From the NCBI RefSeq assembly GCF_000027125.1, contig NC_017626.1: a stretch of 64,000 nucleotides of DNA; one strand, written 5' to 3'. The DNA is from Escherichia coli 042. Its GTDB lineage: Bacteria > Pseudomonadota > Gammaproteobacteria > Enterobacterales > Enterobacteriaceae. Positions within the stretch are counted from its first letter, which is position 1; each line of letters opens with the position of its first letter. The translations under genes and the position numbers were made by a program. The notes under the pieces are model-generated. The model ran no database searches, was not told where the DNA came from, and worked only from the letters and a program-made list of their open reading frames with translations. This document shows positions 39,624-40,328 of the stretch, piece by piece.

Positions 39624-40328
39624 TTATCCGATATCGCTTTGGGAAGTTGATAACAACTTCAATTCTGACTCAAGTTCATCAACTCTTTCAGTCAGTTTCT
39701 GGATATGGTGAATCAGTGGAACAACCAGACGTTCGTACATTACACCTTCGGCAACAAGGCCATTGCTGGAAATGGTTTCCGGTGCATCATCTTCGTTGGC
39801 TGGTCGCCAGTGAACAAACTGAGGGGCAATTTCTCCTACTTCCTCGGCAATCAATCCATAGAATCCCCAGTCACGCCTGTCATTTTCGCATTGCGACCTG
39901 TACCACACAGGGCGCATCCTGAAAATGAGATCGGCGTGCTCTGAATCTATCGTCTCTACTGAATGTTTATAGCGGATAGACGATGTTGACCGCAGCACAG
40001 ACGAAATTGCAGGGTCAGGATTAAGATAAAGATTTGCCGCCGCTGTAGTTGTGCCCAATCCCCATAAATAAAACGCTTCACGGCCAGTCAGCGGGTAAAA
40101 ATCTCCGCCATAACGACCACTTTCCAGATCGTTCACTTCCACTTTGTTTTTCAGCTTATTATCCACTTCTGTTTTTGTGTATCTGGTACTGATATCCTGC
40201 TTTGCACTGTCCATATCAGTCTGAAGCGTTGATACTTTTACGTTAATTGAGGAAATATCTTCCTTTGCCTTACTGACATCTCCCTTTAGCGTTTTGATGT
40301 CATCAGGAATTACTGTCGATGTAGCCAT
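39624..40328 (-). CDS. short tail-fiber-like protein with C-terminal intramolecular chaperone (peptidase S74-like) domain
   Basis: 234-aa ORF; C-terminal region has the S74 signature as I recall it (SSIRYKHSVETID ... GLIAEEVGEIAPQFV ... GVMYERLVVPLIHHIQKL) and the N-terminus is coiled-coil-like. Confidence 0.55.
   Translation of the reverse strand: MATSTVIPDDIKTLKGDVSKAKEDISSINVKVSTLQTDMDSAKQDISTRYTKTEVDNKLKNKVEVNDLESGRYGGDFYPLTGREAFYLWGLGTTTAAANLYLNPDPAISSVLRSTSSIRYKHSVETIDSEHADLIFRMRPVWYRSQCENDRRDWGFYGLIAEEVGEIAPQFVHWRPANEDDAPETISSNGLVAEGVMYERLVVPLIHHIQKLTERVDELESELKLLSTSQSDIG

Follow-up and report, generated by a model that had tools for sequence, protein, structure and literature searches.

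A lambdoid prophage of Escherichia coli 042, lying in a 64,000-nt stretch of contig NC_017626.1 (hereinafter designated the window), poses the question of what a short protein ending in an S74-type intramolecular chaperone domain does downstream of a side tail fibre (Stf) that looks complete. An earlier note on this DNA had described the product of positions 39624-40328, 234 amino acids (aa) long, as an orphan separated from the Stf-like fibre by an unrelated 93-aa open reading frame (ORF), and had offered three explanations: the relic C-terminus of an older fibre whose receptor-binding part was replaced by recombination, a second small fibre, or a trans-acting chaperone. Side or lateral tail fibres carry out the first, reversible host-recognition step and are the parts most often swapped for phage retargeting. 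The second of the three options fits our results best, in a more specific form: the 234-aa protein is probably the distal subunit of a side tail fibre made of two parts, a subunit that can be exchanged and that is present here as its shortest allele. On this reading the gene is an ordinary though uncharacterised host-range gene, not an orphan or a relic.

Positions 39624-40328 hold an uninterrupted minus-strand ORF of 234 codons with an ATG start, in a prophage (J, lom, stf) adjoining zinT-msrQP-hiuH-hprRS.

39624..40328 (stop codon included), minus strand: gene of the 234-aa S74 mini-fibre, probable distal side-tail-fibre subunit in its minimal allele (evidence from ORF, Pfam, prevalence, and the ratio of non-synonymous to synonymous substitution, dN/dS).
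40333..40339, minus strand: Shine-Dalgarno sequence GAGGAAG of the 234-aa gene, read from the sequence; it overlaps the stop codon of the 93-aa gene and lies six bases before the ATG.

Selection on the gene is purifying, with a dN/dS of 0.13-0.23 in every informative pair (Nei-Gojobori), and the frame is intact in 7/7 of the S74 gene sequences compared. The ORF is a real gene under purifying selection, not a chance ORF, and shows none of the loss of start, frame or constraint that marks a remnant or pseudogene.

The protein divides into four parts.

40284..40328, minus strand: N-terminal anchor motif MATSTVIPDDIKTLK, codons 1-15 (consensus M-x-T-x-T-x-IP-x-DI-x-x-LK).
40134..40283, minus strand: heptad coiled-coil shaft of variable length, codons 16-65 (a/d pattern, indels, AlphaFold2 helices at 9-47 and 52-60).
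39984..40133, minus strand: short conserved tip before the predicted cleavage site, codons 66-115 (conserved block with homology to the pre-S74 residues of long fibres and of Gp24 of phage IrisVonRoten).
39627..39983, minus strand: S74 intramolecular chaperone and auto-processing domain with C-terminal helix, codons 116-234 (Pfam, PDB, AlphaFold2 and Foldseek).

The C-terminal domain is a member of the S74 family by profile, catalytic residues and fold, as the earlier note had proposed. Pfam PF13884 matches residues 116-172 significantly (independent E-value, i-E=2.2e-5; model positions 1-57 of 58), and precomputed matches to the same profile are recorded for close homologues. The motif S116-S-I-R119-Y-K121 fits the S-x-x-R-x-K catalytic arrangement, in which a Ser/Lys dyad and an oxyanion-stabilising Arg have catalytic roles (PMC3742443); S116 and K121 are invariant in 91/91 diverse homologues, and R119 is invariant within the family. 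In the AlphaFold2 monomer model, which was built on 91 homologues, the predicted local distance difference test score (pLDDT) is ~90 across residues 120-234, with a helix at 198-233. The best PDB match of this model in Foldseek is 7dc3 (E=6e-5, probability 1.0), followed by weaker matches to the chaperone domains of endosialidase (3gw6) and GA-1 (3gud), with E of 0.17-0.3. A phmmer search against PDB sequences returns 8hqz_d, the C-terminus of the DT57C lateral fibre (E=5e-7), and 7dc3, the intramolecular chaperone auto-processing (ICA) domain of MyRF (E=0.02). The dyad of S74 domains probably falls into place only once the chain that carries it has folded and trimerised (PMC3742443), and trimerisation-dependent self-cleavage of the 234-aa protein at Ser116 is what its sequence would predict. 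The profile match, the Ser-x-x-Arg-x-Lys motif, the fold and the terminal helix are shared with endosialidase endoNF, T5 pb1, GA-1 gp12 and the MyRF ICA domain. In those cases, however, the domain ends proteins of several hundred to >1000 residues, whereas only 115 residues precede the cleavage site here.

In the N-terminal anchor, positions M1, T3, T5, I7, P8, D10, I11, L14 and K15 are invariant in lambdoid and T1-like homologues. The motif stands at the head of 58 of the proteins retrieved, which measure 116-366 aa and of which the shortest are partial; the full-length ones among them span 221-366 aa and differ in their middle parts and heptad numbers. The coiled-coil N-terminus reported by the earlier note is borne out by three observations: hydrophobic residues follow a 3-4-3-4 a/d pattern on inspection of the sequence (I11, L14, V18, A21, I25, I28, V32, L35, M39, A42, I46), homologues differ in the length of the coiled coil by exactly 7, 14 or 21 residues, and AlphaFold2 places a helix at residues 9-47 with pLDDT >=90 for most of them. 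The coiled coil has ~5 heptads in the 234-aa protein. Over the 50 codons of the tip there are zero non-synonymous changes relative to either of two comparison loci (L007 and L008), with a proportion of synonymous differences, pS, of 0.18 against L008. Residues 61-115 have low pLDDT in the monomer model, as would be expected if this segment folds only in the trimer.

The gene is the third in a tightly packed cassette of a Stf-like proximal fibre, a 93-aa protein and the S74 protein, to which the lambdoid form adds a fourth gene for a 95-aa membrane protein.

40616..43021, minus strand: gene of the Stf-like proximal side tail fibre, 799-801 aa (phrog_1419 match 1-793/793).
40338..40619, minus strand: gene of the 93-aa cassette protein, phrog_1361 (its ATG overlaps the Stf stop codon as ATGA; no Pfam match).
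39326..39613, minus strand: gene of the 95-aa predicted membrane protein, phrog_1443 (preceded by AGGAGG; last gene of the lambdoid cassette).

The Stf-like ORF measures 801 aa from a GTG start, and the NCBI annotation pipeline PGAP gives 799 aa in a near-identical locus. Its end-to-end match to phrog_1419 agrees with the earlier description of the fibre as complete-looking. The AGGAGG lies between the stop of the 234-codon gene and the start of the 95-codon gene. A promoter and terminator scan of the four-gene block gave no signal above background.

The cassette order recurs at the window and at eight of the comparison loci (L002, L003, L010, L011, L013, L014, L015 and L016), and its carriers fall into five siphovirus lineages: lambdoid prophages, phage-plasmids, T1-like Drexlerviridae, Seuratvirus and T5-like phages. 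Virulent carriers include Warwickvirus PeterMerian (Bas05), XY3 and swan01, Hanrivervirus KarlJaspers (Bas06), Seuratvirus VogelGryff (Bas25) and Tequintavirus SIA3lw and IrisVonRoten; plaque-forming temperate carriers are PhiR49_1 (with a 100% identical protein), PhiR55_1 and IdasGreatGrand, and the S74 gene is also found on ~100-kb phage-plasmids. At every examined locus the S74 gene directly follows a fibre of gene transfer agent (GTA) type and a ~92-aa gene. In Drexlerviridae the cassette comprises a large lateral fibre, a ~92-aa protein and an S74 protein of ~225-245 aa; relative to the window, the PeterMerian fibre is 46% identical from residue ~260 on and its small protein 45% identical, and its S74 protein 57% identical; for the S74 protein the range in the T1-like phages is 56-58%, and bas05_0029 and bas06_0035 reach ~57-60% over the full length. 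Among phage records, 224 contain the conserved Stf junction and 181 the 93-aa protein, including Dhillonvirus, Queuovirinae and T5-like Demerecviridae. A conserved third cassette gene with this distribution is not an orphan, and the 93-aa ORF, a conserved member of the same cassette, cannot be called unrelated either. KarlJaspers carries a further variant of the cassette, with a Gly-rich gene annotated as 'putative sugar-binding protein' after the S74 gene (L013, 4117-4818).

Third-gene products range from 225 to 580 aa, all with the anchor motif at the start and S74 at the end. Three of the longer ones are as follows.

VogelGryff (Bas25), Seuratvirus: 388 aa as annotated, with the motif from residue 5; start MAKTITNIPKDITNLK; S74 at the C-terminus.
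SIA3lw, Tequintavirus: 580 aa (SIA3lw_44); start MVTKTVIPTDITKLK; S74 at the C-terminus.
IrisVonRoten (Bas32), Tequintavirus: 574 aa (Gp24); start MVTKTVIPTDITKLK; S74 at the C-terminus.

The window anchor MATSTVIPDDIKTLK matches MVTKTVIPTDITKLK of Gp24 and SIA3lw_44 at 10/15 residues; for the E. coli variant MVTKTVIPGDITTLK the figure is 13/15.

Among the closest described arrangements is that of IrisVonRoten, in which Gp24 was modelled by AlphaFold-Multimer as a distal, T-shaped receptor-binding fibre with an intramolecular chaperone, attached to the proximal Gp22 (Humolli et al. 2025, PMC11990801). The galectin-like domain of Gp22 protrudes at the shaft end and is a possible extra receptor-binding domain (PMC11990801). 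Gp22/Gp23/Gp24 and the window genes have the same order and homologous products, and share the anchor and the S74 end: identity across 767 aligned columns is 44.7% between Stf and Gp22, and Gp23 resembles the 93-aa protein at 39% identity (E=7e-26). In BLASTP, residues 86-226 of the window protein align to Gp24 residues 445-567, so the minimal allele keeps only the last strands of a part that in Gp24 forms a complete receptor-binding domain. Gp24, at 574 aa, has two receptor-binding domains, whereas the window protein retains the coiled coil and the last 30-50 pre-cleavage residues; the proximal fibre has a lambdoid Stf N-terminal domain in the window and a T5-type one in Gp22, and the window has the extra 95-aa membrane-protein gene. 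The window cassette is the lambdoid counterpart of the Gp22/Gp23/Gp24 arrangement.

Branched lateral tail fibres built of LtfA and LtfB are also known from DT57C and DT571/2 (Golomidova et al. 2016, PMC4728585; Ayala et al. 2023, PMC10713586). Genetic evidence from DT57C supports attachment of LtfB by way of LtfA, and both proteins carry autocleavable pfam13884 domains (PMC4728585, PMC10713586). With this system the window shares the two-part fibre, and among PDB sequences it is the C-terminus of LtfA (8hqz_d) that the window protein matches best. Both DT57C subunits are large and S74-ended, whereas in the window the proximal fibre has lectin-like domains and no S74 at its end, and the distal protein is minimal. 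The virulent phages Bas05, Bas06 and Bas25 of the BASEL collection carry the cassette without the 95-aa gene; direct homology and an identical place in the cassette link bas05_0029 and bas06_0035 to the window protein, and bas25_0024 shares position, anchor and S74. The literature was searched for functional data on this S74 family, for S74 domains acting in trans and for fibre proteomes of T1-like phages; apart from the BASEL and DT57C papers it yielded nothing specific.

In phage lambda the Stf-Tfa genes occupy the same place, downstream of J and lom, and the N-terminal domain of Stf is homologous. Beyond it the two differ, the window having a Stf distal half of GTA head-spike-fibre or lectin type followed by the 93-aa and S74 genes where lambda has tfa. 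The window has no intact tfa gene, and loci related to it have tfa remnants downstream of the cassette (L004, 8092-8350; L005, 3847-3966; L007, 3356-3466; L011, 5587-5885). These fragments, found in related prophages and phages, indicate that an ancestral stf-tfa module lost its distal part to the incoming cassette.

In complete E. coli genomes the third slot of the cassette is polymorphic. The full-length 234-aa allele, labelled 'tail fiber domain-containing protein' by PGAP, is present in 739/5426 genomes, a 346-aa allele occupies the third slot in 511/5426, and the slot is empty, with a phage-21-type junction, in 1128/5426. Carriers of the 346-aa allele include E. coli EC21Z-144, a phage-plasmid and phage 2G7b; their flanks closely resemble the window (Stf 98% identical, 93-aa gene 92-95%). 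The 346-aa protein shares only its first ~20-25 residues with the 234-aa protein, continues with a ~200-residue beta-rich region and has a canonical S74 domain as its C-terminus (HSDRDLKDNI; Pfam E=1.5e-13). In their DNA the two alleles are 100% identical over the first 44 nt and the identity ends after nucleotide 44; the apparent recombination boundary in the third gene falls after codon 15. The converse is seen in PhiR55_1, where the distal half of Stf is only 15-60% identical to that of the window and the small protein 34%, beside an S74 protein that is 93% identical. Among the comparison loci, L005 and L006 show the same Stf and 93-aa gene next to a different third gene, and L008 a divergent Stf tip and 93-aa gene next to the same third gene. 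Phage 21 itself carries the gene of a homologous Stf of full length, 51% identical from end to end, then a 92-aa gene and directly after it the membrane-protein gene. On the strength of the 346-aa-allele and PhiR55_1 comparisons, the 93-aa protein co-varies with the distal half of Stf, and the S74 gene is an independently exchangeable, optional unit that varies independently of the Stf tip. The earlier note was right to call this locus a hotspot of recombination among host-range determinants: in E. coli the third slot takes three or more common states, and the boundary falls after codon 15.

Taken as a distal fibre subunit, the protein would work as follows. Three chains would trimerise, the S74 domain would template the last ~50 residues in cis and then cleave itself off at Ser116, and the product would be a trimeric stub of ~115 residues per chain, made of the anchor, a coiled coil of ~5 heptads and a small tip. 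This stub would be held on the virion by the N-terminal anchor, the likeliest docking site being the conserved junction that ends the coiled-coil shaft of the proximal fibre, around Stf residues 350-436, with the lectin-like distal domains of the proximal fibre protruding sideways as modelled for IrisVonRoten Gp22/Gp24. Longer alleles would have receptor-binding domains inserted between anchor motif and tip. The 234-aa allele has almost no such insert and therefore its small tip may bind a conserved surface structure, or may mainly cap and stabilise the end of the proximal fibre.

Gene order, homology of the proximal and middle proteins and the N-terminal attachment motif all agree with a two-part fibre. 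A receptor-binding domain between anchor and S74 was not found in the 234-aa protein, which is in this respect a member of truncated architecture and at most a putative receptor binder. Several further points tell against a distal-subunit role. Swan01 was the single phage with a homologue for which a virion proteome was found, and this proteome is uninformative: it showed only five abundant proteins, and even the large lateral fibre was not among them. The docking site on Stf is one that we infer from sequence, and the attachment of Gp24 to Gp22 is a prediction, not a solved structure (PMC11990801). The mature part has only ~50 non-helical residues (66-115), which is small for a receptor-binding domain, and its tip is conserved, not diversifying, with a proportion of non-synonymous differences, pN, of 0 among close E. 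coli variants. BASEL GenBank records, finally, label the orthologues 'putative lateral tail fiber chaperone'.

In one variant of the distal-subunit reading, the 234-aa allele would be a receptor-less cap that occupies and stabilises the docking end of the proximal fibre, leaving the lectin-like domains of the fibre as the only receptor-binding element. We regard this as possible but rather unlikely. If it were true, the empty, cap and receptor-binding states of the slot would amount to a recombinational switch between one- and two-receptor fibres, and the S74 domain would be kept solely for folding a 115-residue stub.

We think it improbable that the S74 protein is a trans-acting assembly factor that helps the Stf-like fibre to fold or trimerise without being a virion component. 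That idea takes some support from the 'putative lateral tail fiber chaperone' annotation of the Bas05, Bas06 and Bas25 orthologues, from the very small mature part, and from LtfA, which appeared unstable without LtfB and so offers a precedent for a stabilising distal partner (PMC4728585). A chaperone for the Stf tip would, however, be expected to follow that tip, and the S74 gene does not: it is 93% identical beside a 15-60% identical tip and is replaced by a different allele beside a 98%-identical Stf. It is absent altogether from phage 21, whose Stf is homologous over its full length, and from the 1128 phage-21-type E. coli junctions, and some products of this slot contain large inserts, beta-rich or receptor-binding, with total lengths of up to 580 aa. 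An S74 dyad probably needs its own chain to fold and trimerise before it is in position (PMC3742443), and the protein matches no Tfa-type or other chaperone family in Pfam, NCBIfam or PHROGs. The 'chaperone' label in the BASEL records appears to derive from the Pfam name, and the co-variation seen in our sequence comparisons does not support it. We know of no trans-acting S74 domain that has been described. If the fibre tip has a partner, chaperone or connector, the 93-aa protein is the better candidate, because it, unlike the S74 gene, co-varies with the Stf tip.

Similarly low in probability is a role as a small fibre or whisker that sits at another place on the virion, for example the tail tip, collar or head, and acts independently of Stf. 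The independence of its sequence from the Stf tip and the self-sufficient architecture of anchor, coiled coil, tip and chaperone domain would both suit such a structure. Against this, at every locus examined the gene directly follows a GTA-type fibre and a ~92-aa gene, across families whose tails are otherwise unrelated, and the other cassette proteins are the only shared components able to receive the anchor; this strict linkage makes the cassette proteins the likely partners of the S74 protein.

The relic explanation, in which the receptor-binding part of an older fibre was replaced by recombination and left its C-terminus behind, contains a grain of truth. Among 1.84 billion representatives scanned in full with HMMER are long Stf-type fibres (539-1243 aa) that share the C-terminal three-quarters of the 234-aa protein at 55-61% identity, an example being a 735-aa Citrobacter 'prophage tail fiber N-terminal domain-containing protein'. 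The shared stretch runs from residues 45-50 to 223-234 in phmmer and from 50 to 224 in the two BLASTP pairs checked. Because long Stf-type fibres carry residues 50-224 as their own C-terminus, the tip-plus-chaperone module is a genuine fibre end that full-length fibres also use in cis, and the downstream tfa fragments in related loci mean that the region has been rearranged. The first 48 residues, however, were not found in the long fibres that share the C-terminal module, yet they head many other short proteins; in a search of 5.8 billion proteins, the 63 matches to the whole architecture or its C-terminal part are all short (134-409 aa). An intact frame with its own ATG and Shine-Dalgarno sequence, the low dN/dS in intact genes noted above, and maintenance as a separate gene in the compact genomes of virulent T1-like, Seuratvirus and T5-like phages likewise speak against a relic, and we consider this origin highly unlikely.

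Just as remote, to our mind, is a lysogen-expressed accessory (moron) acting with the 95-aa membrane protein, for example in exclusion or surface modification, which would suit the prophage-end position beside a small membrane-protein gene widespread in E. coli prophages but is made unlikely by carriage of the S74 gene in strictly virulent Drexlerviridae and T5-like phages that have no membrane-protein gene, by its translational packing behind a late tail-fibre gene with no promoter signal above background, and by the absence of a PADLOC match.

The neighbouring proteins show features of their own. Stf consists of a prophage tail-fibre N-terminal domain, an Ala-rich coiled coil, the junction at ~350-436 and a GTA head-spike-fibre-like or lectin-like distal half, and matches NF048003 at residues 437-637. 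Residues 361-400 (~41822-41941, minus strand) are 97% identical between the lambdoid prophage and virulent T1-like phages, against 0-85% for the rest of the protein, which suggests either a strongly constrained interaction surface or a recent exchange. The Ala-rich shaft contains a 189-bp (63-codon) tandem repeat at 42062-42478 (2.2 copies, 83% match), and among the lambdoid loci compared Stf ranges from 686 to 812 aa and differs in shaft length. The 93-aa protein has no Pfam match even at E<=10, and neither it nor the 234- and 95-aa proteins match NCBIfam or PADLOC. As for the 95-aa protein, its phage 21 homologue is annotated as a membrane protein with two transmembrane domains, and cassettes of Drexlerviridae, Seuratvirus and T5-like phages lack the gene; the query sequence was matched in 3819/5426 complete E. 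coli genomes, most of them via the 95-aa part only. The 95-aa protein may be the product of a moron or exclusion gene.

A strong hairpin resembling an intrinsic terminator, with 8 pairs including 7 G-C and then a T run, lies at 43032-43053 on the minus strand, between lom and the stf cassette, and phage 21 has an annotated terminator at the equivalent place upstream of its stf. At the prophage end, just past the 95-aa gene, a segment of ~65-70 bp (39222-39290) recurs elsewhere in many E. coli genomes at 91-97% identity. Integration beside a tRNA gene was considered and dropped, a tRNA search at the prophage end having found none, and two antisense ORFs on the plus strand (39449-39922 and 39705-39944) are without support.

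The S74 domain, two-part lateral fibres and the annotation of this gene family are already known, and no new kind of system is revealed. What is new is the placement of the lambdoid 234-aa gene as the probable shortest allele of a distal subunit, the recognition of its anchor across five phage lineages, the optional and allelic nature of the third slot, and the evidence against the 'chaperone' label. This reading would correct a misleading annotation and would explain carriage by ~1/7 of complete E. coli genomes. Temperate lambdoid phages, phage-plasmids and three virulent siphovirus groups have in common one portable cassette, comprising a proximal fibre with lectin-like domains, a ~92-aa partner protein and a probable plug-in distal subunit with a 15-residue anchor. 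As a design rule, any protein with this anchor and an S74 tail might be mountable on any of these fibres.

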